This document shows positions 12,753 through 47,771 of a stretch of 64,000 nt of DNA, in pieces. The first letter of the stretch is position 1. Every line of letters begins with the position of its first letter. The notes below the pieces were generated by a model. The model worked only from the letters and a program-made list of their open reading frames with translations. It was not told the DNA's origin and made no database searches. The position numbers and the translations under genes were made by a program. Origin of the DNA: Psilocybe cubensis (lineage: Eukaryota); the NCBI GenBank assembly GCA_017499595.2, contig CM039009.1, positions 1,798,001 through 1,862,000 of the forward strand, given 5' to 3'.

Positions 12753-13207
12753 CTAAGGAAATGAAACTATGATTGTCATAATGTCCCAATCTGTAGTCGC
12801 AGATGGAAGTGCGAGTTCAATCTCTCTCTCGATTTGATGCCTCGCATCTTCTCGCTCCTGGTCACCGAGGATTCTCGAACTCCAACAATGTGCATGGATA
12901 ACCACTCCCTCTAGGTCTGGAAACATGTCTAAATTTAGAAAACTGTCCAAAACTGTCCACGGTCCCAGGTCGGACTGTATGTGTGCCCTGGAAAGATTAA
13001 CTTGGTCCAACTCAATAGTCAGATGCCGTAGATTGTCTGGCCACGCTTCCAAAATCGAGGTTATGTGTGCAATGTAGCGCCCTATCGGTACGGCTCTCGT
13101 GGTTGGATGCATATGGTCTCGATGTCCGTAGTGTAAAGTCAAATCAGTGAGATAAACATGATTTGGAAAGTTAAATGCTAGGCGCGCGGGAAAATGTCGA
13201 TTAAGAT
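12753..13207 (-). CDS. Exon 2 of the F-box/LRR-like gene split by the 12.2 kb insertion
   Basis: Similar to the C-terminal exon of 27144-28502 (LTLHYG, ILEAWPDNLRHLTI, WTVLDSFLNLDMFPDLEGV, IEREIELALP). Acceptor gacctgatAG ends at 13208, phase 1. Confidence 0.8.
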
Positions 13208-13591
13208 CTATCAGGTCAAACACCCTGTTCTTCCTCGGCTGGACGTTTTGTGCCCTCAGCCCCTCTGCGCTGGTCTGATACCTACCCCATGATTTCAAAT
13301 CCTCGCTGCATGGATGCCTGTCATACCATACGAGCGCAATTTGGCACCACTAGGACGAACTTCGGAGTCCAAAAGCGGGCGTGTGGTTTTCGTTGTTGCC
13401 GCAGGGGTTGTCGATCAATATTCGCTCATGAACATCAGACTATCAGCTGTCCATTTGACGTCCAGACTCACAAATAACCTCATCCTCTGGATTCTGCCAT
13501 TCCGATTGTGTCGGTGTCAGCATTCAGTGAAGGAAACCTCATCAGGCCCGTCTTGCTACCAATGCAACCATCCTTCTTTCAACATTACACA

Positions 13592-14180
13592 ACGGGGTAT
13601 CGTGCCCTCCGGGGACTTTTCGACGGGGTATCGTGCCCTTAGGGGACATTTCGACGGGGTATCGTGCCCTCCGGGGACATTTCGACGGGGTATCGTGCCC
13701 TTAGGGGACATCTCGACGGGGTATCGTGCCCTCCGGGGACATTTCGACGGGGTATCGTGCCCTCTGGGGACATTTCGACGGGGTATCGTGCCCTCCGGGG
13801 ACATTTCGACGGGGTATCGTGCCCTTAGGGGACATCTCGACGGGGTATCGTGCCCTCCGGGGACATTTCGACGGGGTATCGTGCCCTCTGGGGACATTTC
13901 GACGGGGTATCGTGCCCTTAGGGGACATTTCGACGGGGTATCGTGCCCTCCGGGGACATTTCGACGGGGTATCGTGCCCTCCGGGGACATTTCGACGGGG
14001 TATCGTGCCCTTAGGGGACTTTTCGACGGGGTATCGTGCCCTTCGGGGACATTTCGACGGGGTATCGTGCCCTTAGGGGACATTTCGACGGGGTATTGTG
14101 CCCTCCGGGGACTTTTCGACGGGGTATCGTGCCCTTAGGGGACATTTCGACGGGGTATCGTGCCCTCCGGGGACTTCACG
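13592..14180. repeat. Tandem array of a 31-bp unit, ~19 copies (CGACGGGGTATCGTGCCCTYMGGGGACATTT), with degenerate copies to ~14290
   Basis: Units start at 13621, 13652 and so on; head-to-tail with no spacers. Confidence 0.97.
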
Positions 14181-14622
14181 ACAGTGTACTGTGCCCGTTA
14201 TCGTGCCCTTTGGGAACATTTGGAAGTGTTCTCATGCCCTCAAAAGACTTGAACGGCGTATTATTGTGCTCTTAGGGAATCTTGGAATGGCTCAGTGTCC
14301 ACAAGATGATTTGGCATTAGTGATTCTCTATGCTACTCTACGCACTCATCGATGCCTACGATGCCCAACTCTTCCACTTTGAGGCTCGCGACTTGCGAGA
14401 GACTGCGGCTGAGACATGTGGTCTCAGTAGACAAGAGCTCTGCTGGGACCTGGTCACGATTCACTAACTGGCTTATGTTAATATCAGTGGCTGTGATAAA
14501 GACCGTTGATCAGATATTAAGGCGGGAGTAAAAATGCTGGCTATCATTTGATATTGTAAGATACATATTCCGTCAGATCCATGTTTATGTTTATGTTTTT
14601 ATAACAGTTAAGTGGCTATGTA

Positions 14623-14997
14623 TTACGTAGACCCAGATCGCCACCCACGCTCAACAAATGCTTCATGCATAAGTTCGTCGACGCGAGCTCCTATTAAATA
14701 AGCATACCACTCCCCCTCTAAACAACTAGTGGTGTGGTCCCGAAGCATACCCTTGAGGTGATGAATTTGCTGGAATTTAGAAGTAATTGGACGGATAATG
14801 ATATCTATCTCCGATCGTATATATTGCTTGAGTTCCTCTGGAATGGGAGGAAGATGGTGATCTCCGACGCAGGACTCCATAAGGCGCGGATAGCGAGGGC
14901 GTGGGGGATTCTGGCTAAAAACGTATAAATTGATATAAGTGACGAAGTTTTTCAGATAGAAATTGACTCACGTTTGATCTCGGAATCGCAACGACAT
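14623..14997 (-). CDS. Small unknown protein A (~100 aa, 2 exons)
   Basis: MSLRFRDQT, GT-AG intron, then QNPPRPRYPRLMESC...LPPIPEELKQYI...GEWYAYLIGARV; paralogous to the adjacent gene. Confidence 0.75.
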
Positions 14998-15210
14998 TAC
15001 ACTTCGTGGTTATCACACAGGACTTTGGAATAAATGACACCCTGAGAAGCGTATAAGGTTGGATAAAGCAGCTGGGGCGAGGCTGAAAAACGCGCGCTTA
15101 TATGCACCAAATGAAACAAGTTTAAGCCGCTATCAATTCAAGGCTCTTCGCAGAAGCACATTCGGTAATACAATACTGCCTTCCTAAAAGCTACACAAGA
15201 CATTAACATT

Positions 15211-15551
15211 CTAGGAATGACTGGCGTGTTCTGCATGTATCTCGGCAAAAATTTGGACTATTCTTGCCGAGACAAAATAACCATACCATTCGCCGGTAGG
15301 CTCGGTAGCCTCCATCAAGTCTAAGACTTCATGAAAAGCTAGCATAGCAAGGTACTTGTCGCCTATTGCTCGTTCAACAATGGTTATGCGATCCTTGATG
15401 AACTGTTTAGTGGCCTCAGGTATGGGTGGCAGATCGGTGCTAAATGCACATGCACGAAGAGATCGAGGGTATCTGTAAGAAAACGTATCAGTCGAGAAAT
15501 AGAAACATGAATAGATCGGTTATACCGAGGAGGATTGGTGGAAGCAGACAT
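15211..15551 (-). CDS. Small unknown protein B (~95 aa, 2 exons); not in the ORF track
   Basis: MSASTNPPR, intron, then YPRSLRACAFSTDLPPIPEATKQFIKDRI...GEWYGYFVSARIVQIF...HS*. Confidence 0.75.
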
Positions 15552-15788
15552 TGTTAAAATTCAAGGGTGAAAATCAGTAACCTATGCTGGGTCGCCTAAA
15601 GTGTCAGAGTAATAATGGGTGATTAATATAGTGTTGCTAGAGGAGACTCACTGTCACGCGCGCCAAAAAGAAAACAAGTAAAATTTAGTGGGAATACCAA
15701 AGTTCTATTTATACACGAACGATGATCCTTATGGCTATATGTGCAGAGCAAGAAACAAAAAGAGCACACGCAGCAATGAATGTCTAAC

Positions 15789-17134
15789 TTAGACAAAGCC
15801 TCGATTATCTACGGCGATTGCCCGAACAGGTCCCCCAAAAGGTTTGGGCGCCCGCGCTTGACTGGTTCGTAGATCAAGCGGGGTGCCTGACGTACATTTG
15901 CCTGATGTGCTCTTCCGCGTCTCTGATTCCTTTTGACGCTCTGTCCCTAAATATGAGTACAATGTGCAGTTCTCAACAGAAACACATACCTTAAGCCATG
16001 GAAAATATATAGGATAAATCCCTAACTCTGCTAACGTCTGATCCGCAGCTACCTCGATCCGGAACAGTAAATAATCCTGGCAATACTGAAAGCATCGATA
16101 GCGTTCCAAGATGGCTGAAGGTGAGATCGGTGGGTTAATAAATTCGCATTCATTAAACAGGCAAAAGATATATAACTTGCCTAATCCGAATCTCTTTTCG
16201 ATTTCTACAGCCTCCTGTACAACTTCATACACTGTCTCGAACGGTGGTGTAGACTGCAGATGATGGTACAAAAGAAATGTGAAGCTCTCGGATTGCTTGC
16301 GCTGACGAAATATTGATGCTGTCATGCTTTTTAAGATCTCTAAATCCGTCTGCGGTACAACGGCCTCAGAAAGTGAGAGGACGCTAACCGAAAAGATTCG
16401 CTGAACAACTGCCATTCGTACAACAGCCATTTCAAGGCTGACATCAGGCAAGCGTGTACTGGCTTGTACCCACAGAAGCTTTGAAATAAAGAGCTCCTTC
16501 ATCCCCAGGAATTGAGCGGGACAATAGTACGCAGCTGTGTTTTCGAAGGGCTGAATGACCTTCTGTAGATACAACCCGGTCATCTCCATCTGTATGTTTT
16601 CTCTGAAATACACATCTTGGTTTCAAAGGAAATGTATAAGAACATTAACAATGCTTACTGTGCGACCTGATACCCATAAAACGCGCGCACTTCTGCTGAT
16701 GTAATTTCACTGGACAAGCGACTTAGTAGAGGCTGGTGGAGTCCAAAAGTCGGTACTAGTAGACGCAAGATATTCTGAATCGAAACGCGAGTGTCCAAGT
16801 TAACCTGCCTGAAATAAGCAGCTGTGTCTAACTCCGCGGGATACTGCTCGGCTATACACAGCCTGTCATGAACCGCATTCTTATATGCAGACCATATCTA
16901 ATAACCGTCAGCAATAAGGAATGGTTCAATAGGACGGACATCACCAATGGTTCCCGTATGGGAAAAAGAACGAAACACCGAGGATTAGAGTCTGTGAGTG
17001 GCTCTAAGCTCCTTAATCTCAAAACCTGTGGTGTCTACATGAACTATAATCGAGAGGCAATCTATGACTAGCATAAATACCTCTGTTTCTGGACCATCGT
17101 CGATTGGTAATAGTGAGCTAAAAACGTTGCCCAT
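15789..17134 (-). CDS. Divergent ribonucleotide reductase small-subunit (R2, ferritin-like) homologue, metal ligands lost; multi-exon
   Basis: Spliced EPLTDSNPRCFVLFPIREPL-IWSAYKNA, AEVRAFYGYQVAQENIQMEM, FTFLLYHHL...VVQEAVEIEKRF and IEVAADQTLAELG are colinear with class Ia R2. 3' end approximate. Confidence 0.8.
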
Positions 17135-17616
17135 ATGGATGCGTTTAATGATATATCGATATGTATAAGCTAAGGAGACGAGATGTGGATAAGTGTGATA
17201 AATGTACTGGGATGCAAAGTTGGCGCTTAAAAACCAATGAAACGCCCTCGTCTAAAACATGACTGTGTTGTCGCTGTCTGAAATGGCTCGCCTTCAGCGT
17301 GTCTTATGCGTACCTTGGAAAGATCTATGCTACTCACTAAGTCTACCTCTTGTATGGCATATGATTATCTGGCCTGACAAACTGATCTACGATTAAATAA
17401 ACCACAAATCAAGTGTTTATTGTGATTTTCTGCGGTCATAGCCAAACAAAACCCCTCCTAGCAAGGAATGTGGTTCCGATCTTATACTGCCAAGCTTGGA
17501 CAGTTCCCAGTCTCATGTCTCTCCGCATATATGAATGTGCGGATATCTCGGAAACACGCGCACTCTCCCCAATTCCTGTCTGCATTGCCATCTTTCCTAT
17601 CTGTCCTCCTTCTACA

Positions 17617-18927
17617 ATGGCTGCGAGAAAGAAACCTATCCCTCCCCCTAAGCCTGTGTCTGCTGAAAAGGGTATGAAATTAAACAGAAATATATCGCCT
17701 ACCTCTAACTTTGCAACTACAGACATGTCCGCCGTGCAGGATGACAGGGAAGGGAAGTTGGATGAAAGCTTGGTCGAGTTCCCGAGTATTGTCGATAATT
17801 CATTTGATCCACCTACGGCCTCATCGAATCATGTCGAAAGCCAGGGTTTGGCAGACGACACCAATACGGAATCCGAAAGTATGCGTCCCGCGCAAAATAA
17901 CTTGTCGAACAAGGCTCCGAAGGCACCAGTTCATGACCGTATGCCATCGCCCCCCCCTTCAAACAACCGCTCTCTTGCAAAGCAGTCGTCCGCCTCTTTT
18001 GTGGCCGCTGGGGGCATGGCTTCTCCCAAGACCACACAGAGAGGCAGACCATCCAAAAAACCTGCAGAACCGACAGCGCACGCAAACTCGTCAAAGCGCG
18101 CTACAAGAGCCAGTATGGCGCTCGACGCAGGTACTGCCAAGGAAGTGTTGGACATTGTGAATACTGTGAAAGTTCTTGATAGTCGTCTCGCTGCCCTGGA
18201 ACAGTCTGAGAGCGACCGATCTGCTGCCCCTCCCCCCCAAGTACCCGTTCCCTCTTCACAACCTCTGTCTTCCGACCCTCTGTTCAAGAGACTGTGTTCA
18301 GCCCATACTGATCTACGAAGCGCTCTACAAAATAACATGGATAACTTCAGGGAGTGGAGAATCACTCACGAAAGCGACTGCGCAGCTTCCAAGGGCGATC
18401 TGGCTGTATTGAAAGGCAGGGTCGCTGCTATTGCTGATGAAGTACATGGATTAAGGGATCGCTTGGATGATGACATACGCACTCCTCACTTCGACGTGTC
18501 TCCCAGCAGCCCCCACACATATCCTCGTATGCAACAAACACATCTTCCGCCCCATTCCCCTCTAGGGAAGCGCCCTTTCAACCAAGACGATGCGGATCCA
18601 ATGGACGTGCAACACATGCCACCACCTACGAGACTGAGAAGATCTGTTCCAGGAGATCTGCTCCCCGAGATATTATTTGGCCCTATTGCACAAGGCGACC
18701 CGATGACAAGAGCCTGTGACGCTATCAAAGATGCTGGTTTGTCGGTTGATGTTGTGGAGGCGGCTGCTCATGCTCGCAGGAAAGGTTTTATCGCCATTCG
18801 ATTTAGAGGGTCGGAACCTGCAAACGCCTTCCTATCCAAAGTCAAGCAGGGCATAGGCAGGTTGCTGGGAACAACGGCATATTGGAGTGAGCCTGTCAAT
18901 ACTCGCACCAATACTCCCTTCAGGTAA
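17617..18927 (+). CDS. ORF1-like protein: disordered N-terminus, coiled coil, C-terminal RRM-like domain
   Basis: Intronless ORF (ATG 17617) with heptad segments (LAVLKGRVAAIADEVHGLRDRL) and EILFGP...KGFIAIRF...ANAFLSKV; lies upstream of the RT ORF on the same strand. Confidence 0.7.
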   Translation: MAARKKPIPPPKPVSAEKGMKLNRNISPTSNFATTDMSAVQDDREGKLDESLVEFPSIVDNSFDPPTASSNHVESQGLADDTNTESESMRPAQNNLSNKAPKAPVHDRMPSPPPSNNRSLAKQSSASFVAAGGMASPKTTQRGRPSKKPAEPTAHANSSKRATRASMALDAGTAKEVLDIVNTVKVLDSRLAALEQSESDRSAAPPPQVPVPSSQPLSSDPLFKRLCSAHTDLRSALQNNMDNFREWRITHESDCAASKGDLAVLKGRVAAIADEVHGLRDRLDDDIRTPHFDVSPSSPHTYPRMQQTHLPPHSPLGKRPFNQDDADPMDVQHMPPPTRLRRSVPGDLLPEILFGPIAQGDPMTRACDAIKDAGLSVDVVEAAAHARRKGFIAIRFRGSEPANAFLSKVKQGIGRLLGTTAYWSEPVNTRTNTPFR

Positions 18928-19561
18928 ATATACCTGATAATGCGCTACTTCTCTTGTGTCTTGAGCACAGTTCTCCATCAACATTGACAATCTGACAGTC
19001 GACGAGGACAAATGGGGGTTGTTATGTTCGTTGTGGACTATGGTTCGTATTACTCTGATTTTCTGACTGATATGTCGACTGGAATATTGGACCTTTATTG
19101 TATTATTATCTTTGTCTCGGACTTTTCTGCATCTCTCCTTTGTGTCTTCCGGACCATTTCGCCTGTGATCTTTATATGGACCCAATAGTGTACTTCAACA
19201 ACCTCGGACACTTATTTGTAGCGTTGATTTCTCTTTCGACCACTGAGCATTTGGACTCAATATTGCCTTATTCCTAATAAAATCAATTAAAACGTGACCT
19301 AGGCCGCTGTTTGGCGAAATAGGTTACTAAATAAAATAGGGGGCAAATATTAATTGCGGCCGTTCACAATGTCTACATCAGATGTATAGACACCTGCATT
19401 TTTCCCCGCTGTAGACCTGTTATCATTGCAAAGGTGCCTCCATTGTAATCGACCTGTCTTATCATACCAATGGACTCTGTAGTTAAAACACAAAGCTTCA
19501 AAAGGGTACAAAACAGTAAGCTTATGCCCTCTTGTTGCGCCAGCTCATACAATCATAAACA

Positions 19562-20260
19562 ATGGACTTCCCTGCACTCGTCTCCAACCCCTCTCCCAAC
19601 AATGCGTCCAGCTCAAATTCTCGTCGTCGGTCTCGTAGGGCCCAATTGATGAGCGAGACGACAACGCCCTCTCTTGAAGAGCTAAACTCTCGCTTTGCGT
19701 CACTTGCCTTCAGCGTCCACAGAATCGAAGACACTTTAAGTCTCTTGTTGGGCAAAACCAATCGACACGTCTATGACATCGTTCACCAACGAGTACTTCG
19801 CGATTATCGAGGTGCTGAAGAATTGGGAACAGCGTTAACAACCATTCCGGAACTCAGGTCGGCCAAAGACGCTCTTGAGGAGAAACTGGATGCAATTGAG
19901 AAAAAGCGGCACCAGGAGTATGCGAATGTAGCCCTAACTCTGGCATGCATATCGGCAAGGTTGGCTGCTATTGAAGAAGGCCCTGCCGACGGAAACAGAC
20001 GAAACCAGGATGCACCGCCTTCTGTCGATGTTATGATGGGACCTTTCTCCAACGAATTCACTCGCAGAGGGACAGAGGACCGTTTGCTGGCGGCCCAAAA
20101 AGTGCTGGAAGGTGATGGAGTCAAGGTTATGGACTTACAAGACCGCCCGGGCTTCCTCCGAGTAACCTTTATGGATGAGGACTCTGCCCATGAATTTGTG
20201 AATAGGGTGGCTCACGACGAAGAACTGAACGTCAGGGGCATCTTTACCATCAAGCCTTGA
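19562..20260 (+). CDS. Second ORF1-like protein: coiled coil + RRM-like domain
   Basis: 232 aa intronless ORF with a coiled coil followed by DVMMGP...PGFLRVTF...AHEFVNRV. Confidence 0.7.
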   Translation: MDFPALVSNPSPNNASSSNSRRRSRRAQLMSETTTPSLEELNSRFASLAFSVHRIEDTLSLLLGKTNRHVYDIVHQRVLRDYRGAEELGTALTTIPELRSAKDALEEKLDAIEKKRHQEYANVALTLACISARLAAIEEGPADGNRRNQDAPPSVDVMMGPFSNEFTRRGTEDRLLAAQKVLEGDGVKVMDLQDRPGFLRVTFMDEDSAHEFVNRVAHDEELNVRGIFTIKP

Positions 20261-20956
20261 ACCCATGTGTGTATGTCCATCCCCACTCTCTAGCTGCCTA
20301 GGTTGACGGAATTTCATTTCATACTATAAAGGATTTTTCTGTGACACAGAAATAGGTACTAACACTTGGAATTGGTGAAATGCGAAATGGACGCTGCTTG
20401 TTATATTAATGTTGTATTTGTATCGTATTCCTACTGGTCTGAAATCATTGTTTGCGCTCATCCTTTGTCCTATGGATTCTCCATTTGAAACTGTTTAGCT
20501 TAAAGTAACATGACGTGAGTATTGAAGCGGGTCTACTACACCCTCATCGAGACGACGGCAGTGATCATATACTGGGAGTGTCTGATTGTCTGCCGCAAGG
20601 TGTACAAAATTGTGTTTTCTTAAAACTTGTCCCCTACCTTGACCGCTGACAGGTATGAAATTGTTTATCAATACCAATGGGCCTCTTGTAACTCGAAGGT
20701 ACTTTTAGTGTTAGCTCCGCCTGCAGCACCAGTCTGGACATTGCCACGGTTGCGTGGATCAAAAGACTGACACAGGTGTGTAACCTGGAAGCTGAGTTGC
20801 GATTACGGGATGACAGATCTGAATTAGAAACTCTTGACGCATACAACTTCTGCCTCTTACATTGACCATTGACAACAAACGCTCAACTTGGTACTCCAAG
20901 CTGACAAGTGGTACCGGTGACTAATAACGTTTCTCTCTCCCAAAACTATCTTTCTA

Positions 20957-23900
20957 ATGCTAAGATTACCAGAAATGCTTGACTCTGAGGGTGCGGTGGC
21001 TGTAATAGTGGGTCCCATTAAAGGAAACGACCCTCAGTGTGATGTCAAATGGATGATGAGGGAAACACTGCTTCCTGAGGACGCCGTGCTGTACGTCTGC
21101 AACGCCAAAAGACAAAACTTCTATATCCTTCACTTTATCACTTCTGAAAGGGCTCATCAATTCATACGAGCGATCCATAACTCTGACAATCCTAAACTGA
21201 GGGCGTGCTCGGCTTACAGGAAAGATGCAAGAGGCATTGACCACTTGCCTACCCACCTTTCCCTAGCCACCTGGAATTGCAATGGTCACCTCGCGGCATG
21301 CATAGGATCTAAAGCCTGGAAGTCACTTATAAAGGCTAATGACATAACCATCTTTCAAGAAACCTTCCTGGGGCCTGACCAACACGAATCGCTAAAACTG
21401 CCTAGAGGCTTCAGAGCTGAAGCGGCTTCAAGACCCTGGTCGCACTCGACAGGTGGCCAACGAGGAGGTGTCGCTGCCATAATCAGAAAAACAGTCAAAT
21501 ACACACGACGAGCAGATCTGTCCTTCCCTGATACCTTGGTTCTCGAGCTTGAAAACTTCGTCATAATTGCTGCATACATTGTCCCTGAAAACAGTTATTG
21601 GGAATCTTGGTCCGAGGTAGATCCTAAGACCCGTGTAGCGGATGCTGCTGCTGTGTGTGCTCTGGAAGGGAAGCCAATAATAGTACTGGGGGATTTAAAT
21701 GCTAGAACAGCATCGCTTCAACAAGATTGCTCCCGTTTGGTCAGATCCTCTCCAGATACAATATGTTCGTCTAGGGGACGTTGGCTTCTTGACGTCTGCG
21801 CCGGCCTGGACTTGCATATCCTCAATGGGACAGATTGCGACATTACCCGCAAACCTTACTGGACGTCATTTCAAAATGCGGGAAATGCGGTTGTGGACTA
21901 TGCAATTATCTCCTCAGACCTACTGCCCTGCCTAGACAAAATGGAGTGTTTCCAGGTAGAAAAGGGAGCCGATCATGCTGCCATTAGAGTGTGCCTCACA
22001 CTCGAAGACTCTAGTTGGTCTCAGGAACCATGGAAAAGTCTCGACCTCTCAAAAGAAGATGTTCTGGATGGCCTCCAGCGAAATGTATACTTAGACGCTT
22101 GTCTCCAACATACCCTTTCATGTGCTATGTCCCCTGAAGATGCGACAAAATACCTATATGGGCCCACATTTTTTAACTCCAACCCAACTCAAGTCTTTAT
22201 GGCGATTGCGGCCTCTAACTCTCGTGACCAATGGAGCGTCGGCTTCAAAACACTAGGAAACCAAAACGTCGTGCTCAGATCCATACACTCTAAGCGTAAC
22301 AACATTTGGGAACTGGCGATAGCAATGTTGCTCCTCGAAAAACCTCCCACGATGCCGCTTATTATCTATGTCTCTTCCCCTGAAGTGGCTAACTTCCTAA
22401 CTACCAAGGCTGGCTCTCTCTTTCTGAATGGTTGGAATGGTCAATTGGACAGCCCGAAAAGGCTGACTTGCACGCTATTGAGAAACCGTCCTGCGTCTAC
22501 CGAAATACGTATCCCCAGGATTTCGAGCCCGGGTGAGCAGTGGGAGCTTAATGTGGTACAATCAACTCTAGTTGGCCTTGAAACCGACGGTGTGGACATA
22601 ACATGGTTGCCTCCAAGGATCGAGGATATCCCCTGCTGGTTCTATCCGCCTGATAAGGATCCGTTGCCGAACGTGGCCTCTAAAGTCTTCATGGGAAAGG
22701 TCACATCAAAACAAATCCCACCCGCACGTAATTCTGAAAATCAAAGAAAGCGTAAAAGGCCGAAAGAGGCTGCGGTGCTTGACATAAAAAGCGAAAAAGC
22801 GGACAGAGAAGTATTGACTCGACATAGAACGCGTGCGAAGATCAGACGAATTTGGGTAGAAAATCTGAACAGGTTTGAAAATATGGCCAGCGACTCCCCT
22901 AAACAATTTTGGAAATTCGTCAAGGAACACACCGAAAAGAGACCTGTGGGGGCAGAAGTTAGTGGGACGGACTTAGTGGACATGACCATCACCAGAATGA
23001 ACCCTCCCTCTTCAATTCCAGATTGCTTTGACTCAACAAAATTCTCTGCAGAAAAAGATGCCTATAACGAGATGCCTATAGCCCTAACAGACAACGCGCC
23101 ACTCCCAAGTTTTACAGACCCTTTCTCATCCGACGAAGTGGATGACGCTAAACAAACGTTGAGAGCTCATTTGTCGGGTGCGAAAGGTATAGACGGCATA
23201 TCTAACGCGGAAATCCTCAGAATCCCTAGCGACAAGTTAGCTGATCTGTTCAACAAGTGCATCCAAACCCTTGATGCGCCGGCCACCTGGCTAACAACAA
23301 TGCTTGTGGGGATTCCTAAAGCCGGAAAATCGCCAAAGAAGGCAGAGAACTACAGAATCATTGCATTGGAATGTTGTCTTCTGAAGATGCTAACCTTGCT
23401 CATTGCAAAACGGTTTAGATCTTGGACTTGCGCCCAAGGTATTTTGCCAGAGTCCCAACATGGATTCCGTCCAACCTTCCGAACAAACAGCTGCGCTTTT
23501 GTCCTAAGAACAACGATCGAAACGTGTTTGGCTAATAATGAAACCCTCGTTGCCGTATTTGTTGACTTGGAGAACGCCTTCCCATCCGTAAACTTGCCCA
23601 CCTTATGGCTTAAACTAGTCAATGCCGGTGCGAATGGACCCATCATGGACTGGATGAGAATGATTTACAGAAGGATGCAATATACTGTGGTACACAACGA
23701 GGGCAACAAGACATTCTCGGCTCTCTTCAGGTCGCTGTGGGGAATACTTGCGGGTGACTCATTCTCTCCAGATCTATTCACATTCTACATTGCAGATTGC
23801 AACCCCCCAGAATCCGACTACGACATTCGATTGGCTGGAAAACTAATAGCTATGCTCCTCCTGGCCGACGACATGATCTTGGTAGAAAAGTTGGGTCCAA

Positions 23901-25165
23901 ATCCAATGCATAGCAAGTTGCAATACCTATCGCAATCCTGGTGCAGGTCCAACTTTATTCGCATAAATGTTGATAAAACAAAAGCAATGCTATGGGGCCC
24001 TATTCCTTCCCTACTCCCTATCCTCTCTCTCCCAAACTCGACAAAGACGATAGAATGGGTGGATTGCTTCGATTACGTGGGTTTAACTTTCCAATCTGGA
24101 TCAAAATTCTTGTTCCAAAAACATGGGATGCGCAAAGCTCTAACAGCATCGCAGTGCACATATATCCTCTTTATGCTGAAATCGGTGATGGGAGATGTAT
24201 TGCCTCGACTGGGAATCCGTTTATACATGGGAAAAGTAGACCCTCACCTCATTCACGGATGCGAGGTAGCAATTGACGTCGACATGAGTACACTTTCACT
24301 TCTACAGAATGCTCAAACAAGAGCTCTCAGAAAAATATTGGGACTTAGTGACCACTCCTTGACGACAGTCCTATTCACAGAGCTTGGTGTTATGCCCATT
24401 CGATACAGGAGACTCCTCATTGCGCTACGCTATTTGAAACACTTAATGGGACTACCGGAAGACAGGCTAGCTAAAGCAGCTCTGGTTCAAAACTGGACCC
24501 TCCTTAATGATGGGAAATCCTGCTGGCTTGGTGATCTAAAATGGGCACTGGCTTCCTTGCCTTGTCCTGTCAAGATCACTCGAGCAAATGTTGCAAATGA
24601 ATCCGCGGTGGACATGCTGGCCGAAAAAGTGAAAGAGTCCTGTGCCTTGTCTCTGTACCGCGAGATCGAAGGCTGTCCAAGGCTCCCTCTCCTTCATAAG
24701 CGTGTTCCCCCCGACAAATCTCACTCTCTCCGTGACGTCGTCAAATTTCGTGCGTACCTACAAATTGTAAGGGTTTCATCACATAGGAAAGCATTGGCGA
24801 GACTTGTGTGTGCGGAACACCCCTTGGCAATAGAAGTATTACGACGTCGAAACGTAAATGGAGTACCCATCCCCAAGGAAAGACGACTATGCCGATTCTG
24901 CAAAACAGATATTGAAGACGAACCTCATGCTTTGATGGAATGTCTAGGATGCCCCCTGCCAATAAAGCTGAGAAGACTGATTCTCTTGAATGAAGCAAAA
25001 GAGGCTTACCCGAGGGAATACTGGGACGTGAAAAAGACTGGTGACAGATATGACCTGCTTCGCCGTTTTCTGGGTCACGACGAGTTGCTTCCAAAGTTTG
25101 CATGCTTTGTGTATCATGTGCTACAGGCCTTTGAAGAGGCCCCCATTTGTATCCCGCAAATTTAA
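20957..25165 (+). CDS. Non-LTR retrotransposon ORF2: RRM-like, AP endonuclease, degenerate RNase H-like, reverse transcriptase, C-terminal Zn finger
   Basis: APE motifs TWNCNG, FQET, GDLNAR, VDYA, DH; RT motifs QHGFRP, FVDLENAFPSV, GDSFSP, LLADD; Zn finger RLCRFC..EDEPHALMEC. 1402 aa with no interruptions. Confidence 0.95.
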   Translation: MLRLPEMLDSEGAVAVIVGPIKGNDPQCDVKWMMRETLLPEDAVLYVCNAKRQNFYILHFITSERAHQFIRAIHNSDNPKLRACSAYRKDARGIDHLPTHLSLATWNCNGHLAACIGSKAWKSLIKANDITIFQETFLGPDQHESLKLPRGFRAEAASRPWSHSTGGQRGGVAAIIRKTVKYTRRADLSFPDTLVLELENFVIIAAYIVPENSYWESWSEVDPKTRVADAAAVCALEGKPIIVLGDLNARTASLQQDCSRLVRSSPDTICSSRGRWLLDVCAGLDLHILNGTDCDITRKPYWTSFQNAGNAVVDYAIISSDLLPCLDKMECFQVEKGADHAAIRVCLTLEDSSWSQEPWKSLDLSKEDVLDGLQRNVYLDACLQHTLSCAMSPEDATKYLYGPTFFNSNPTQVFMAIAASNSRDQWSVGFKTLGNQNVVLRSIHSKRNNIWELAIAMLLLEKPPTMPLIIYVSSPEVANFLTTKAGSLFLNGWNGQLDSPKRLTCTLLRNRPASTEIRIPRISSPGEQWELNVVQSTLVGLETDGVDITWLPPRIEDIPCWFYPPDKDPLPNVASKVFMGKVTSKQIPPARNSENQRKRKRPKEAAVLDIKSEKADREVLTRHRTRAKIRRIWVENLNRFENMASDSPKQFWKFVKEHTEKRPVGAEVSGTDLVDMTITRMNPPSSIPDCFDSTKFSAEKDAYNEMPIALTDNAPLPSFTDPFSSDEVDDAKQTLRAHLSGAKGIDGISNAEILRIPSDKLADLFNKCIQTLDAPATWLTTMLVGIPKAGKSPKKAENYRIIALECCLLKMLTLLIAKRFRSWTCAQGILPESQHGFRPTFRTNSCAFVLRTTIETCLANNETLVAVFVDLENAFPSVNLPTLWLKLVNAGANGPIMDWMRMIYRRMQYTVVHNEGNKTFSALFRSLWGILAGDSFSPDLFTFYIADCNPPESDYDIRLAGKLIAMLLLADDMILVEKLGPNPMHSKLQYLSQSWCRSNFIRINVDKTKAMLWGPIPSLLPILSLPNSTKTIEWVDCFDYVGLTFQSGSKFLFQKHGMRKALTASQCTYILFMLKSVMGDVLPRLGIRLYMGKVDPHLIHGCEVAIDVDMSTLSLLQNAQTRALRKILGLSDHSLTTVLFTELGVMPIRYRRLLIALRYLKHLMGLPEDRLAKAALVQNWTLLNDGKSCWLGDLKWALASLPCPVKITRANVANESAVDMLAEKVKESCALSLYREIEGCPRLPLLHKRVPPDKSHSLRDVVKFRAYLQIVRVSSHRKALARLVCAEHPLAIEVLRRRNVNGVPIPKERRLCRFCKTDIEDEPHALMECLGCPLPIKLRRLILLNEAKEAYPREYWDVKKTGDRYDLLRRFLGHDELLPKFACFVYHVLQAFEEAPICIPQI

Positions 25166-25519
25166 AGTATATTGTAAAAACGTAGGCAGTCAATTGACGA
25201 TTTGTATTCTCCTATATGCACAATGGCTGAAATAGACGACAGCTTTCAATCATGAAAGCAAACCTGCCCGTTAATCTTGGACTCATGGACGCTAACCAGC
25301 GAGCCGGATGCAGGGCAAGGAATGTTCTTGCCCTTGTCGCCCGTGACACAACTGCATGCGCCATGACGTTCTGTGTAGGACAGGGGAGGCATCGGGCCCC
25401 TTCCGCTGCTACGCACCGGGCGGTCCTGTTGAGGGCTGTTTGGTAATCTCGTAAACATAAACATAAACATAAACATTAAGTAAAAAATGAAACAGTCGAG
25501 GTAATGATATGGAACGCAC

Positions 25520-26288
25520 CACATGGATCAAACATGACACATAGGCGCTCAATGCTTGATGAGAAGTGTTCTTCTAAAATATCAAATTCTTCTTTGAGGA
25601 CCTGAGGCCCAGCAGTATCTGTCTGGTCGATACGTAGGCATAAGATCTTCAGAGAAGGTTCTTCACCATCCGTTGAATGGAGGCCGACCGGATATATTGT
25701 CCGAACAACCGATAACTTGTCGGTCTCAATGGTTTCAAGGCTTGGGAGTCGAAGGGCATTGGTATTCGAATATGTCATCGTATTTGATACCTCACAGGCA
25801 ATGAGAGTCAAATCTACAATTGATGTCCCGTCGAGGATGTTCCTTGGGAGGTTTTCTACGTTGTTGAGCTTGAGCGATACCAATTGGTTGGATTTAAGAA
25901 GATTTCCGAAGGATCTTGTGATTCGTTGGTGCATAAACCAGTCAGAATAGAACAGGGGACCAGATAAATAGAGCGTTTCCACCTGCGAACTGGGGTGACA
26001 AAGCATATCAAGAACAATATTGAGGTTTTGGAGAATTTGGATCTTCATAGCGAGAGTCAGAGTATACACGGTGCCGACCTGAGCTTGCACATAGAGGATA
26101 CGAACTCCTGGAAGAATACCAGTATCACGAAATTCCAGCAAACTGCGAAGGAGGAATAGTCTCAAATGGATTTCAAGTGCATTATTCCCCGCCACACATA
26201 TAGTTTCAAAAAGATGGCGGTGTTCGGGCCAAGGAAATGAAGGCGAGGAGACCTCATTTTCGGGTTGCGCAACGAAGGTTAGTGACAT
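25520..26288 (-). CDS. Exon 1 of the F-box/LRR-like gene split by the insertion (F-box N-terminus shortened)
   Basis: Similar to the first exon of 27144-28502 (LVSLKLNNVENLPRNILDGTSIVDLTL, LETIETD, LKILCLRID). Donor GTGCGT at 25519, phase 1. Confidence 0.8.
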
Positions 26289-27143
26289 GGGGGTGTTGAG
26301 ATGAAGGAAATGAGAAAGAATTTGTCGGAATATATTCTATGTGTCCATCAGATGGGTAGAGCAAAATATTAACGCCCTGATTGATATATTGATGCCATGG
26401 CTGATCATATAATTAACGCCCTGACATGAACAATTCTTGGTGTCAACTTGCTGACATGTAGATGTGAAGTGTGCGATTTGGGGAGTAATGAGAACATACA
26501 AGGGCTCCAATGACCTGATCGTGATCGCAAGCTCCGTGCCCTATTGGACTTGGACAACTTAAGGGAAATCTAGTATAAAAAAATCCTGGAATTAATCAAG
26601 CCACAAGTCATTGGCCGGAATAGCTAGTAGGCTTCGGCTCGATTGAGATATTGTTCCTGTATGCCAGGTATTCGGGAGAGCTACGGCATAAATGAAAGTA
26701 GAGTTAAACATTTCGTCCAGTGCCAAACACACAGCTGTATATAAACCCTCCCTTATTGCAACTCAAGTGTACATACCAAGCACATGCAAGTCACATTATG
26801 TGAACTCATGCTAATGGACTCTAGCTATACTCCTGACCATATAAAGACTGCGCTACGAACCATGATGTCCGCGTGGCTTGTCAGAGGCTCCTGGGATCAT
26901 TGTAGGTGAGCGATAATCGAGACATTGAATCCATTTTTGTTCCCCTCTCATTCTCATATAAAAGATGTATCGGGAACATGCTCTATTGGCGATGTACATT
27001 GGTGTCCTTTGCTATCTTTGCGGTCGGTCATCAAATAACCTTTTCGACATTTCGACAATGGATACATATAAATTATTACGTGATGATATGCCATCGACAC
27101 AGCGCGTGGATAACTAAGTGATCATGACCACCTTGGTAGCCAG

Positions 27144-28502
27144 CTAACGGCATGAAACCGCTACTGTCATCTTGCCCTGCTTGTGCAGAGTGGGAAGAGC
27201 CAGTTTGATTTCCTGCTCCATCCGAAGCTGTTCCGCTTTGCGACTGTGGTTAGTCATAATATTGTTAGGAAATAGACAGAACGCCTTGATGTCGACACCA
27301 CCGAGATGTGGAAAAATGTCCACGTTTAGTAGAATATCATCAAGTTTTGTCCATGCCTCGATTGGCATACCCAGCGATATGTCCTCTGCACAGTAAAATA
27401 GATTGTCAAAAATGAGTGTTAGTCGTTGAAGAGAGGGTGGCCACGCTGCGAGAACTGTGATCGCATGGCTGACGTATGCTTTAGTTGGCAATGACGTCCT
27501 TGACAGGTCTGTGGGTCCGTAACGCAGGGTCAAATAGTTGAAATTATTGAGTTTTGTAGAATAACTCATTGGTGGAGTTAGAAAAAGTTGAACAAGGTCT
27601 GTTGAGTCATGGGTTATGAGCACAAGAGGGTTAAAATGGAGGTAGCAGATAATACCATTTGAATCAAACACAATATACAAACTCTTAACGGATGGAAAGA
27701 GCTCCGCCACTGTGTCGCATTCCTTGTTGAGACCCCCAAAAAAACAAGTTCTCATATCGATACGCAGGCATACAGATTTGAGGCAAGCTTCTCCATTGCT
27801 GATCATTGAACGCTGGGTCTCTGGATATAAAGCATGAACCATAGGAAGATCGGTAGTTTCAATGGTTGCGATCTGAGAGAGAGGAAGATGGACATCCATA
27901 GCGCCCATGGTGTCGGATATGTTGCAATCAAGAACAGTCAAATGAATTATTGATGTCCCTTGTAAGACGTCCTTGGGAAGGTCTTGCACTTCGCAAAGCC
28001 TAAGAGATAGCAATGTTGGGGAGCGGATCAGGTTTTGAAGGGATCGCACAACCTTGGATGGTAGGGAAGAGAAAAGTGGGCCATGGAATTCAAAGGTGTG
28101 TAACCGAGCTTCTGAGTGACGAAATGCATTCAGAATGAAATCAAGGTCTTCGATTATTTGCTTGCAACGACTAGGCTCCGGATTGCCGAGAATGGAAGTA
28201 ATGGGGGCAGACATTTGAAAAATTCGAATATGGCGGAGTATGCTAATTTCCATGTCTGGGAGATCAACGAGGCTGCGAAGGTGCTTTAATTTTACACGGA
28301 ACGCATCCTCATCATCCTCAAAGAGGCTGATAAACTTGAAGAGGTATCGTTTTGCACTCCAGCGGAAGGTAGGCGAGACACGGAGACATGTGCGTAATGT
28401 CTGTGCACAATCCGGCTGGAGAATTATATAACCGCTATGGTCAGAGACAATTGAATCAATAATTTGAGTCTGGATCTCTGGGGGGACTCTTTCTTGAGAC
28501 AT
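27144..28502 (-). CDS. F-box-like/LRR-like protein with one in-frame 57-nt intron (27599-27655)
   Basis: N-terminal VPPEIQTQIIDSI...LRTCLRVSPTFR...YLF F-box-like pattern followed by leucine-rich repeats; GT-AG intron. Confidence 0.75.
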   Translation of the reverse strand: MSQERVPPEIQTQIIDSIVSDHSGYIILQPDCAQTLRTCLRVSPTFRWSAKRYLFKFISLFEDDEDAFRVKLKHLRSLVDLPDMEISILRHIRIFQMSAPITSILGNPEPSRCKQIIEDLDFILNAFRHSEARLHTFEFHGPLFSSLPSKVVRSLQNLIRSPTLLSLRLCEVQDLPKDVLQGTSIIHLTVLDCNISDTMGAMDVHLPLSQIATIETTDLPMVHALYPETQRSMISNGEACLKSVCLRIDMRTCFFGGLNKECDTVAELFPSVKSLYIVFDSNGIICYLHFNPLVLITHDSTDLVQLFLTPPMSYSTKLNNFNYLTLRYGPTDLSRTSLPTKAYVSHAITVLAAWPPSLQRLTLIFDNLFYCAEDISLGMPIEAWTKLDDILLNVDIFPHLGGVDIKAFCLFPNNIMTNHSRKAEQLRMEQEIKLALPTLHKQGKMTVAVSCR

Positions 28503-29013
28503 GGGGGTTCACATCATTTCGAGTACGATTTCTCAAATTTAAACAAAACCATAGTAGGTTCACGGGATGCCAGGAGCTTGAACATCCAATGTAACTATGG
28601 TTTCTCGAAGTCTTGGCCTTCTATATACATCTTCGCCAACAATTGTAGATCAGTAGTTTGTATACATTGCGACAAGTCGCTAAATTAGCGCCGATTGCCA
28701 ACTTCGAAAACTTAGGTTATGCAAATGTTGATAACCAACCATTCCCGATACAACCGACCTTAGGGAAATACGCATCACGTACCTGGAAATACTACATTGG
28801 TCGCATTTATCGTTTTATCGTGCATAATGAGCCACGGCGAGAGTGGAGTCATTACAGTTTCCCACGCGTATATTGCTTCTTTTGGTTTGCTCATCCTAGA
28901 AACGAAAAAATAAGCGAGTCGCATACCTTCAGGTATTGATCAGGTTCAAAATGTACCTTGCCTCATTGGCGACTCGTGAAAGATGTACAAATGCGACTGA
29001 ATAAAGGTTTCAT

Positions 29014-29176
29014 TTTGGTAATTGACCAAACAATCAACCTTGTTCCAAAATCGTCCACGTACCTGTGAAATTGACACACTGTGACTTCGAAGTCAAGAGC
29101 GTACAAATGAAATTTGGTAATTGACCAAACAATCAACCTTGTTCCAAAATCGTCCACGCACCTGTGAAATTGACAC
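29014..29176. repeat. Two direct copies of ~64 bp, ~100 bp apart
   Basis: tttggtaattgaccaaacaatcaaccttgttccaaaatcgtccacg..cctgtgaaattgacac occurs twice. Confidence 0.9.
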
Positions 29177-29877
29177 TCGGCACTGTGACGCGACTTCTAA
29201 ATTGAACTTTGACCTGACTCTCTTTCCATCTATGGAAATTCGTCATCTAAATATAAAATCGAGCTAGGCGCCTCCTCACCGAACCTCACCCAACCATACT
29301 CGATCTTTATTCACGTGATAAAGAATTCCTGTTATCTACCTTCTGCTTCAATATGTCACACAGTGTCAATCGAGAGCCTCTTTCAATGTCTGCCGGCACA
29401 GATTGTTCCCCCTCACAGTCTTCAAAGTTGTTAGGACCGCAGACACGCGTTAAGTCCGTTTTGTGTTAAAATACGTTAAATTCTGACGCGTTAAATACAG
29501 TTACGTCGTTCTAAGCGCGCAAAGGCGAGTAAATGCTGTTTGTCTGCGCCATTATATCTTTCTGATTTAACCACTATAGAGTTACAGACCCAATAAAAGA
29601 TTGGAGGACAGGGACACGTCTCAGATGCACCGGACCCAGCCTGCGGCCACATACCTTGTTGGTCAATCTGTTGAGAAACAAGTAAGTTTCCCTGGTCCGT
29701 GTATTCCCAAGATATGTGTTGATATCTGACTCGTTATATTTGTGGCGGCTGTTTGATTGCAGAACGACAGTCGGATGTTACTTGACCACCAAGTGCCCGA
29801 TAGTGTACAGTCAATATCGCATAAGCAGGCGGACCTAATCCCGGAGACAGAGGTAAGAAAATTTTCTGCCTTTCTCT

Positions 29878-30693
29878 GTGTTCTCACCGTTGACGTGTCT
29901 AGTTCAGATTAGTGAATTAAACCAACCACAAGTCAATTGTCGAGACATGCATAATGGGCCATGTGCTGGCCTTCAAGACATAAAACGCGACTATGAGAAG
30001 CATATTAATGCTGTTAATCATGACCGTGAACTTGAGAGAAAGGAATTGAGCGAGACAAAGATGATGCTCACTTCTTCTATGCTAGACTGTGCAACACTGC
30101 TCTCCGAATTCCAACAAGCGAAAGATGCATCAGACTCCCAGCGTGAATACTTCGAAACAATCATCCATACATTATCGAATGAACTGGACGCAGCAAAGGC
30201 TACATATTGGAAAGACGTCCAGTCTGTCCTTCTTGATTACCAAAGGTCTGAGGCAAACCTTCGTATGATGCATGTCGAGACAATTGCAGCGCAGAGGACC
30301 CTTGAAGAGCGGTCAAAAACTATAACCGAACTTGAAGCTCGCTTGGGATATGAGAGGGCAGCTCGTGAAAGGCTCGATGATGACCTTGCTATTGCGAAGA
30401 ATGCTCTGGCCGGTGAGTGTAATGTCACAGATCAAACTCCGGCTAACCCAGGTCGTATTTTAGATGCCCTTGCTGGGGAATCTCGCCAGTTCGAGGCCCA
30501 ACGCTCTAGAGAGCGATTAATGGAGGCTTTTATTACAAGGATGAGGGCCCAGGTCGCCGATGCTACACTTATTGATAAATATGAGAATACCTTCCACCAA
30601 ATCCCGGAGGTCATCGATCTTATAGAGAGGCATCGTAATTTGGTGGAAATTGTTGGAAGTTTTTCTACGGTCATTGAAGCAAGCGATCAATAA
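29878..30693 (+). CDS. Coiled-coil protein (last exon; short upstream exons likely from ~29350)
   Basis: Long E/R/A/L-rich helical ORF, with GT-AG signals upstream. Confidence 0.55.
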   Translation: MFSPLTCLVQISELNQPQVNCRDMHNGPCAGLQDIKRDYEKHINAVNHDRELERKELSETKMMLTSSMLDCATLLSEFQQAKDASDSQREYFETIIHTLSNELDAAKATYWKDVQSVLLDYQRSEANLRMMHVETIAAQRTLEERSKTITELEARLGYERAARERLDDDLAIAKNALAGECNVTDQTPANPGRILDALAGESRQFEAQRSRERLMEAFITRMRAQVADATLIDKYENTFHQIPEVIDLIERHRNLVEIVGSFSTVIEASDQ

Positions 30694-31816
30694 AAAAATG
30701 ATGTAGATTATCTTTAGCTCTAATACCAGTAGGTAACTTCGAAGTATGCAATATCTAAAATGTGATTCAGTATATATGCTCTGGTAAAATAATGATACCC
30801 AGGAAGAACTCAACTCAAACCATACTCATGCCTCTCTTGAAAGTGAAACACGGGTAAACATGGACAAGTTCAATCCATATGAATCTCCTTTACCCAATGG
30901 TGTGCCAAATTCCATCCCCAGCTGGGGCTGTTTAACCTCGACTGATGAAGAGATCGGAGTTGTTATCGAGGTGCATGTCGGGTCTGAAATCAAACTCAAA
31001 CAAAGATGAAGAGTTACTACCACAAATCAAAATAATTTCTGGCACTTCATCGGCTCTGCCTGCATATGCCTGCATCCACCGTAATATATAAAGATGTGAC
31101 CATAAGTTTTATTGAGTGTAGAGACTCTGAGAAGGAAGAATTTCTCATTATATGTCAAGGGAGAATAATCACAAACAGACATATAGGCAATGGGGTTTTG
31201 AAGACTCGTACATGCCATACGAAGTGGTGGCCCATCTACAAGTTTTCCCGTGTAGAAAGTGCGCTGTACAGTGTATATAAACACCGATGTCCAGGCATGC
31301 ACGGCATAGACAGAATGCCGAAAAATGACTGTATATCTTCGGGATGAAGAAAGGTAAGAATAATCATACAAGGAACCTTCAGATATAAGTGAGGGAACAA
31401 ATTATGTATAAGAGGGAGTGTTTGCTCTATGTAAGGGATTGTGATTTGTATATGTGGGCACCAAAACTATATGTATGGTACTGAAAATTGTATCCGAGGG
31501 TGCAACCTATGAATGTATGGATACTGGATTTATATGTTCGGAAACCACCTTTCTCTATACTGGAAACCAGATTATGTATATGGAATTGTGCATAATTGCG
31601 ACTTCTATGTATGGGAAAAAAAGTTTATAGATTGGTATTAAATGTGCAAACGGACAGCCATAGCACAGGTCCAACCTGGAAACACGTTAAATTGAAAACA
31701 GATATCAGCGAATTTGTTACTTACAAACGGATCGCCGCTCTTAGTAAATGCCATGATACTACTCTGAACAAGACGGTAAATCAGCAACCGAAAAAAGAAG
31801 AATAAAATCGCACCTA

Positions 31817-32520
31817 TTACATCTCCCACTCTCCATCTTTCGCAAATTGCTCCGGGTGTTCAACAGGACAGGGAGGTACGTCCGGATCGCGTTCGAGACG
31901 TGCAGGTTGAGCACAGAGTCGTCCCACACACCCCTCTTTCGTACGTCCCTCCGACGCGTACCTGCCGCCTCCCAGGATGATGAGTGAGTTCTTGTGTTCA
32001 GTGTCCTGGTATCTCGGGAACCAATACTCATCACCACCGTCACCACCGTCCCACAATGTCAGCCATCCCAAAGAAAACGCGTTGACAGATGAACGCACAG
32101 CGCTGACTTGTCCTCTTGTAGGCTTGATCGCGTACGCCCCGCGCGGAAGTTGGGACTCCGTCGAGAACAAACCTACGTCCTGACCACCGGCGACAGATCC
32201 AGGCTCTCATTCAATACGTAATCAACAATATTTGCCGCGTCTTCTTCTTCGAGTCCGGCGAGGAAGGGCAAGAGATGTACAGCGTAGCCGTTAGTGGCGT
32301 GTATGACATACTCGCAAGTCAGTATTTCCTCGGGCATGTACAAGTTCCAACGACGGCACGGCTATTTTGATAATTCCTGCTCGATATTCGTGATGGATGT
32401 AACAGGGGTCTTGATGTGCAGCTCAACCGTCACCTTGGGTAGGGGAGTTTGGGCATCTTTGAAGAGATGGGTAACGAGTTTGCATGGCCAGAGATTGTGA
32501 CCCCGTAGATGAACAGCAGA
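31817..32520 (-). pseudogene. FAD-dependent oxidoreductase (DAO-like) fragment
   Basis: HNLWPCKLVTHLF, YVIHATNGYA.HLLP, PTRGQV, EYWFPR and IILGGGR motifs, with a stop and frameshifts. Confidence 0.7.
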
Positions 32521-47100: not shown

Positions 47101-47771
47101 TCGTTGACATTGAAGCTAAAGGGTTCTGGACATTGTCTTAGTTCAATATAATTTGCGTCCCGTCGGTCGCCAATTAAACTTAAGACTAGAACTCAATATT
47201 TTTGTAGTCTACATCCATTTATTATTACATACCAATTAGTAAAGCTGATACTTATGGAAGAACTCTTCGTCAGTCACATCTACGTATAGACGTAGCGAAA
47301 ATATAATGCACCGATTAGTAAGTCTTCCTCTAGTTCAAACGGATCAAGCAGGGTTCAAACACGCTGTACGATTCAGGTCGTAACCTCTGACGTGATGTTA
47401 AAATGGTACCTTCGTTCACCCTTGCAGATCGATGAATCTCTAATGTTGAGATGCTAGTATAATGAAAATCGTAGAATATTGAGTCATTTAGATATGTCAT
47501 TGTGGTATTTTCAACAAAGGTGAAAACCATATCAGGACACCAGATCTCTATAAATCAAGCTGCGTGGATCTATCCCACGCATACAAGGGGGAACCCACTG
47601 TAGCTCAAACCAAGACTTGTTGATCTGACAGATATTTAAAGACACCAGGACATCATTCTGCCATAGATTCAGGAAACCACCGGGAAAGAGGTAAATTAAC
47701 TACCCAGTCACAGTCAACCTCTAAATTTAATGTCAAACCCGACAATTAGAACACCGTTACTATAGAGCGCC

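Follow-up and report, generated by a model that had tools for sequence, protein, structure and literature searches.

A putative paralog of the ribonucleotide reductase small subunit (R2) was found next to a LINE in the window, that is, the whole stretch of 64,000 nucleotides of Psilocybe cubensis DNA that was analysed. Judged from its sequence, the gene is real, open and catalytically dead; its status as cargo of the LINE is not shown. Our preferred reading, held tentatively and at a little under an even chance, is that of a radical-dead R2 duplicate made at the DNA level and kept as a folded protein, which lies in a mosaic, transposon-rich block, outside the LINE unit that recently moved. A fungal R2 gene would have been duplicated with its introns retained, and its radical chemistry would have been lost long ago while the folded protein was kept.

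Gene model

The frame of the R2-like gene (Table 1) runs from an ATG at 17134 to a spliced stop that ends at 15809, with zero internal stops, and its five introns comprise four of the GT-AG type and one of the GC-AG type. The preliminary description of this locus had reported open exons and mostly canonical splice sites, which agrees with this model; its left end, 15789, is the stop of the reverse-strand frame in which intron 5 is kept, and was moved accordingly to the spliced stop. The call of the GC-AG intron is supported because its splicing brings back the canonical R2 spacing. Indeed, the anchor motifs are 23 residues apart in the spliced model and 45 in the unspliced one, the canonical spacing between these motifs being 22 residues in 65/65 reference R2s with both motifs matched (from a set of 70). 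The R2-like gene is head-to-head with the ORF1-like gene ORF1a, as had been described with a distance of about 480 bp, and 482 nt separate the ATG at 17134 from the ATG at 17617. This divergent spacer may be a promoter common to the R2-like gene and ORF1a, which it could co-express.

Table 1. Positions of the R2-like gene, the adjoining LINE and neighbouring features in the window
Feature	Position	Strand	Description
31-nt x 19 array starting CACAAC	13588..14174	+	Tandem repeat
X2	14623..14997	-	105 aa, one intron; paralog of X1
X1	15211..15551	-	95 aa, one intron; downstream of the R2-like gene; diverged paralogs in read set X5
R2-like pseudoenzyme gene	15809..17134	-	Six exons, 352 aa, open frame
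R2-like gene, exons 1-3	17134-17081, 17025-16945, 16897-16659	-	Exon 2 with alternative acceptor 17034
R2-like gene, exons 4-6	16602-16181, 16114-15990, 15946-15809	-	
GC-AG intron of the R2-like gene	16115..16180	-	66 nt, in frame, stop-free
Last exon of the R2-like gene	15809..15946	-	Arg/Lys-rich basic tail; exact acceptor uncertain
Spacer between the start codons of the R2-like gene and ORF1a	17135..17616	.	482 nt
ORF1a	17617..18927	+	436 aa; RRM-fold domain at the C-terminus, a homologue of the RT ORF's N-terminal domain
Possible in-frame intron of ORF1a	17672-17722	+	51 nt, weak
ORF1b	19562..20260	+	Second ORF1-like cistron; domain motif pattern in a three-way alignment
LINE part with a second near-identical copy	20655..25476	+	302-nt leader, RT ORF, 3' UTR, tail
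ORF2	20957..25165	+	1402 aa, open; RRM-like domain, AP endonuclease, reverse transcriptase
6-nt repeat tail, LINE end	25452..25476	+	Preceding ~130 nt high-copy

Homology to R2 and predicted fold

A search with Pfam PF00268 (Ribonuc_red_sm), which the preliminary description had proposed, matched two unspliced pieces of the gene, weakly (E 8e-4 and 4e-3) and in both cases below the gathering score. In the PDB, 12 of the 13 matches of exon 3 and four of the six matches of exons 4-5 were eukaryotic R2. The spliced model is colinear over residues 25-302 with a profile of 70 R2 proteins (88 bits), in line with the colinearity with class Ia R2 noted earlier; this score is favoured by the reference set, taken from 136 candidate ORFs at 80 metagenome loci and selected for resemblance to the query, which leaves the Pfam and PDB matches as the independent checks of R2 homology. 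The R2s of these 80 loci are of canonical type and share 25-36% identity with the R2-like protein over long matches, none being closely related to it, and identity with the two closest eukaryote-type R2s to hand is 28% (77/272). Two metagenome R2 genes (L053:3478-4797 and L054:9059-10378) are longer and are interrupted at the iron-ligand motif of helix C, perhaps by an intein or a similar insert.

Exons 4-5 are predicted to form helices throughout (pLDDT 70.7), and the top fold matches are eukaryotic R2, with mouse and human best; this model was built on an R2 alignment and is not independent evidence of the fold. The R2 (ferritin-like) profile and fold that characterise an active class Ia R2 are both found in the R2-like protein.

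Loss of the cofactor and radical-path positions

The di-iron ligand columns, which are Asp, Glu, His, Glu, Glu and His in R2, have become Phe, Glu, Gln, Gln, Arg and Ser, and one of the six ligands is kept, namely the glutamate of helix C. The columns of the radical Tyr and of the radical-path Trp and Asp hold Thr, Cys and Gln, which leaves 1/9 of the cofactor and radical-path positions. The four motif changes read earlier (FAASDG to LVPTFG, ENIHSEMY to ENIQMEMT, VEGIFF to VQRIFS and RDEGLH to RQRKQS) proved exact. The predicted protein cannot be an active R2. Selective loss of the iron ligands was considered and rejected, with 1/9 of the cofactor positions kept vs 51/138 of the other invariant columns (Fisher p 0.11).

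The end of the protein is also altered: a C-terminal Phe is present in 70/70 canonical R2s vs 0/7 possible tail readings of the R2-like gene, and by the likeliest reading a basic tail replaces the acidic one that ends in Phe and binds R1 in R2. The C-terminal tail of R2 is described as the part that binds R1 (available text of PMC3824934).

Sequence relatives

A HMMER search among 1.84 billion representatives gave a single match, P0001, an R2-like fragment of 149 aa with 27% identity. Word-index protein searches for a relative gave 0/564 and 0/2429 candidates, and the ESM Atlas gave no usable match for the R2-like protein. Both P0001 and the R2-like protein are degenerate at the cofactor sites and they have 10/63 doubly derived residues in common (permutation mean 3.7, p 0.003), whereas P0001 retains more cofactor residues (His, Glu, Asp). 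The ends of P0001 fall near the exon 4 boundaries of the R2-like gene, and this fragment might be a single exon. In an R2 tree of 22 rows (20 of the 70 canonical proteins, the R2-like query and P0001), the last two were not grouped and neither was placeable on its long branch, that of the R2-like protein having about 10 changes per column.

The adjoining LINE

The neighbour of the R2-like gene has the characters of an APE-type non-LTR retrotransposon, namely an AP endonuclease and a reverse transcriptase in one ORF, a 3' repeat tail and dispersed copies. The closest relatives of its ORF2 were found in Psilocybe cyanescens (43%) and Cyclocybe aegerita (37%). The divergent neighbour had been called ORF1-like, and this assignment is borne out: the C-terminal domain of ORF1a matches the N-terminus of the RT ORF (E 3e-8) and is predicted to fold as beta-alpha-beta-beta-alpha-beta, with RRM domains as its leading fold matches (best E 4e-3). 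In the ESM Atlas, ORF1a matched only unnamed clusters, at 0.83-0.84. Pairwise BLAST of ORF1b against ORF1a was not significant, the former having been recognised by its motif pattern. Since ORF1a is a true relative of the LINE, the adjacency of R2 and LINE is not wholly random.

The element shares with APE-type fungal LINEs the endonuclease and RT ORF, the repeat tail and the RRM-fold ORF1-like protein, and differs from them in having an RRM-like domain in two separate upstream cistrons as well as at the start of the RT ORF. This layout, with the domain in three successive cistrons (17617-25165) and spacers of 630-700 nt, is unusual for a LINE. The 3' end of the LINE (25357-25487) is far more abundant than its body (depth about 300 at 25413); numerous very short copies, or a SINE-like element that depends on the LINE, may account for this.

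Copy number and boundaries of the block

Read depth was analysed over 14200-34100 in four of 14 listed runs, chiefly X5, X8 and X9, of which X8 and X9 belong to one study. The fourth, X13, presumed to be RNA, showed zero depth across 14200-30799, which speaks neither for nor against expression. Runs X10-X12, labelled as the same species, contain almost none of the sequence words, a comparison by words that does not establish absence. A single 6540-nt contig of X5 spans 14200-20684 with X1, X2, the R2-like gene, ORF1a and ORF1b, at a depth of 23.5, which is similar to that of the right flank (25.6); contig depth is no copy number, and X5 may be the source of the window. No other X5 contig at 80% likeness adds depth over 16192-20175. 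Over 20655-25357 the X5 contigs have a depth of 40-45, with contig breaks at 20655/20684, and the depth excess of the boundary bin is explained by a second near-identical LINE copy, which starts at 20655 and is without R2, ORF1a and ORF1b. The multi-copy part of the LINE begins 3.5 kb from the start of the R2-like gene and, as duplication was seen only for 20655-25476, the duplicated part holds no R2. In raw reads the ratio of RT depth to R2-ORF1b depth was 2.12 (X8) and 1.87 (X9), and ORF2 variants were present at mixed frequencies in both runs. The block has three copy histories: the X genes have diverged paralogs, R2-ORF1a-ORF1b is single and ORF2 is doubled. At window positions 18969, 21218 and 26059 almost every read of X5, X8 and X9 disagrees with the window sequence, which points to assembly errors or strain differences.

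The R2-like gene had been described as carried inside the retroelement. This placement is not upheld, since the other near-identical LINE copy seen is without R2 and no enclosing target-site duplication was found. The latter was sought for any 5' end in 13000-20900, the 5' end of the LINE being undefined, and none enclosing R2 rose above chance: the best flank match was 10 nt and that at the tail junction 8 nt, with controls of 7-9 nt, in view of which the 8-nt flank matches were rejected as target-site duplications. At loci with RT relatives, an R2 match was present in 0/45, these relatives being remote (21-31% identity) and their contigs mostly short.

The usual fate of LINE copies is 5' truncation, and the duplicated part 20655-25476 could be either the natural unit or a 5'-truncated copy. 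Under the second option the R2-like gene might be true cargo, which we consider unlikely: the LINE would be multi-cistronic and 9.7 kb or longer, three of its cistrons would bear an RRM, and its 5' end would carry, in antisense, a radical-dead R2 gene with introns whose product tunes the host ribonucleotide reductase; the R2 introns would survive retrotransposition because they are on the opposite strand. The presence of R2, ORF1a and ORF1b on one contig, the kinship of the RRM-fold domain of ORF1a with the RT ORF, the high copy number of the last ~130 nt, as with frequent truncation, and the depth of the R2-ORF1 block relative to the right flank (1.56x and 1.61x in X8 and X9) all agree with cargo. 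They are opposed by the only other near-identical copy seen, which starts 302 nt before the RT ORF and has no R2, by the failure to find a target-site duplication, and by the Cyclocybe relative of ORF2, in which a metalloendopeptidase is joined directly before the endonuclease (annotation only). The possible sense-strand intron of ORF1a also speaks against cargo, weakly; as proof against retrotransposition it was rejected, such a match being present in 174/1000 shuffles. We tentatively retain a DNA-level duplicate that would adjoin the 5' end of the LINE source locus, outside the unit that recently moved.

The flank 25488-30799 has about 60% of the R2-block depth in X8 and X9, as if it were present in one nucleus only. 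A second nucleus that has the block and another 3' neighbour, as for a mobile unit, and a flank deletion fit this depth equally well.

The other flank and the rest of the window

The fungal DNA of the window is rich in introns and contains many pieces of transposons. Downstream of the R2-like gene, a single two-domain gene was considered and rejected in favour of the two small genes X1 and X2, which are paralogs (score 146 vs a best of 42 in 1000 shuffles). No relatives of X2 were found in viral contigs. A diverged X5 contig (depth 54.3) matches the X-gene region at 80% likeness up to ~15768 and does not match into R2. The CACAAC array beyond these genes resembles what we take to be the subterminal array of a DNA transposon (CACTA-like end), and its partner end was not found within the window. 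A Tnp2/Plavaka-like transposase ORF is located at 61584-63263, 47 kb from the array.

It is improbable, in our estimation, that the R2-like gene is cargo or a remnant of a DNA-type element, either a Helitron or one that includes X2 and X1 and has a CACTA-like end at 13588, the position of the LINE beside it being secondary. The array and the Tnp2-family ORF, together with the common orientation and the introns of R2, X1 and X2, agree with such an element; the match of the diverged X1/X2 paralog, which stops short of R2, and the array's missing partner end in the window count against it. The duplicated R2 gene of a mosaic block is again preferred.

Three ORFs (12753-13349, 25476-26336 and 27144-28508, reverse strand) look related and F-box/leucine-rich-repeat-like by eye, with no convincing Pfam match, and flank the R2/LINE block on both sides. 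A short element of very high copy number at 31285-31663, with strand-switch joints and >1000 loose read ends at 31662, probably marks where a small transposon with inverted repeats ends. Furthermore, an HMG-box gene with coding repeats of 15 and 30 nt is present at 47766-48716 (forward strand). The last 40 residues of the ORF at 57342-57902 (forward strand) resemble the N-terminal tail of histone H3, with Met at one lysine position; the best 60 of 98 PDB matches of this tail were all H3 (best E 0.16), and the ORF is possibly an H3-tail mimic.

Maintenance as a protein

The R2-like protein keeps 52 of the 148 columns that are conserved at >=90% in the R2 references, counts in which two of the 70 references, interrupted at helix C and without residues there, were left. 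Neutral decay to the same retention was simulated from two reference R2 genes, and 0/1600 simulations remained stop-free (mean 10-13 stops, minimum 2). The kept invariant residues are clustered along the protein (permutation p 0.0015). By segments drawn after the data were seen, retention is 7/9 in the N-arm, 9/13 in the first half of helix C and 14/20 in helices F/G, and is low in the cofactor-bearing middle (10/61); helix B keeps 4/13. The N-terminal arm and the helix C segment are, as we presume from R2 structures, the R2 dimer surface. Hydrophobic character is kept at 26/36 substituted hydrophobic invariant columns (expected 53-58%), a value reached by 0-4% of simulations. By their BLOSUM mean, the substitutions are no more conservative than neutral ones, 67-90% of simulations reaching the observed value. 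The X5 contig has one difference from the window in 6485 nt, lying outside the R2-like gene, and no variant within the gene was seen among 40 of 1288 listed.

The gene had been presented as a maintained pseudoenzyme rather than a decaying one. As none of the neutral simulations was stop-free and the kept residues are clustered, maintenance as a protein is supported for most of the history of this predicted gene; the open frame speaks for past, not present, selection. That the gene is a once-useful paralog, now a relaxed and unexpressed relic with no current role, is quite unlikely: the very long branch, the unconservative substitutions, the non-selective ligand loss and the dearth of close relatives would suit it, and the open frame with five usable introns, the near-identity of the X5 contig and the clustered retention argue against it. 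A folded protein that would have been kept after the loss of its radical remains our tentative choice.

Comparison with known R2 paralogs and possible role

Non-catalytic R2 subunits are known as helpers, namely yeast Rnr4 and the apicomplexan R2_e2. Saccharomyces cerevisiae Rnr4 (beta-prime; PDB 1jk0_B, 1sms) is a direct match of pieces of the R2-like protein in the PDB sequence and fold searches. Like Rnr4, the R2-like protein is an R2 paralog that should be unable to hold the di-iron/tyrosyl cofactor, and its sequence indicates the inability to assemble this cofactor that defines an Rnr4-type beta-prime subunit. Rnr4 shares 55% identity with Rnr2 and activates it; three of its ligands are lost and its dimer surface is preserved (available text of PMC2704937). 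In contrast, the R2-like protein is without 5/6 ligands, is ~28% identical to the R2s to hand, has a basic tail and is encoded in a transposon-rich block. The earlier likening to Rnr4 is thus apt for a cofactor-dead R2 paralog and fails in the number of ligands lost, in the level of identity and in the absence of an R1-binding tail.

The apicomplexan R2_e2 (Plasmodium R4) is likewise described as a long-branch R2 paralog with intact frames in which the radical Tyr is often absent; most of its functional residues are retained, as is a conserved motif at the C-terminus that binds R1, and the P. falciparum protein interacts with R1 and R2 (available text of PMC3824934). In the R2-like protein both the functional residues and this motif are lost and, with its R1-binding tail gone, it could not work as described for R2_e2. 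Rnr22 of Cryptococcus neoformans is, similarly, an additional, non-essential R2 paralog of a basidiomycete, and retains the conserved residues and can replace Rnr21 (available text of PMC9431586). The R2-like protein, as predicted, is more degenerate than the beta-prime subunits described.

Without forming a radical itself, the R2-like protein probably pairs with host R2, which its conserved N-terminal arm and helix C segment would allow. As it would have neither a radical nor an R1-binding tail, dampening of host R2 is likelier than help: the protein may dampen, sequester or relocate host R2, an inhibitory role being somewhat more probable than that of a helper. A helper role like that of Rnr4 would be the main alternative. 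A nuclear signal is a possible function of the basic tail.

That reverse transcription is limited by dNTP supply is a weaker premise than had been stated. According to the available text of PMC3002893, Ty1 mobility rose through recombination in mutants without negative regulators of ribonucleotide reductase, cDNA levels not being raised, and hydroxyurea stimulated mobility in the wild type. Either lower or higher ribonucleotide reductase activity could serve a transposon.

In the literature covered, from which subscription papers are mostly absent, no fungal LINE, Helitron or other transposon was reported to carry an R2 gene. As a candidate, the R2-like protein might naturally inhibit or relocate ribonucleotide reductase. 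Should the gene be no more than a neighbour of the LINE, it would count as another degenerate paralog of an accessory region, and its interest would be modest. If transposons keep such genes, these may serve to steer the dNTP supply of the host or its replication stress, something that affects the mobility of Ty1 in yeast (available text of PMC3002893).
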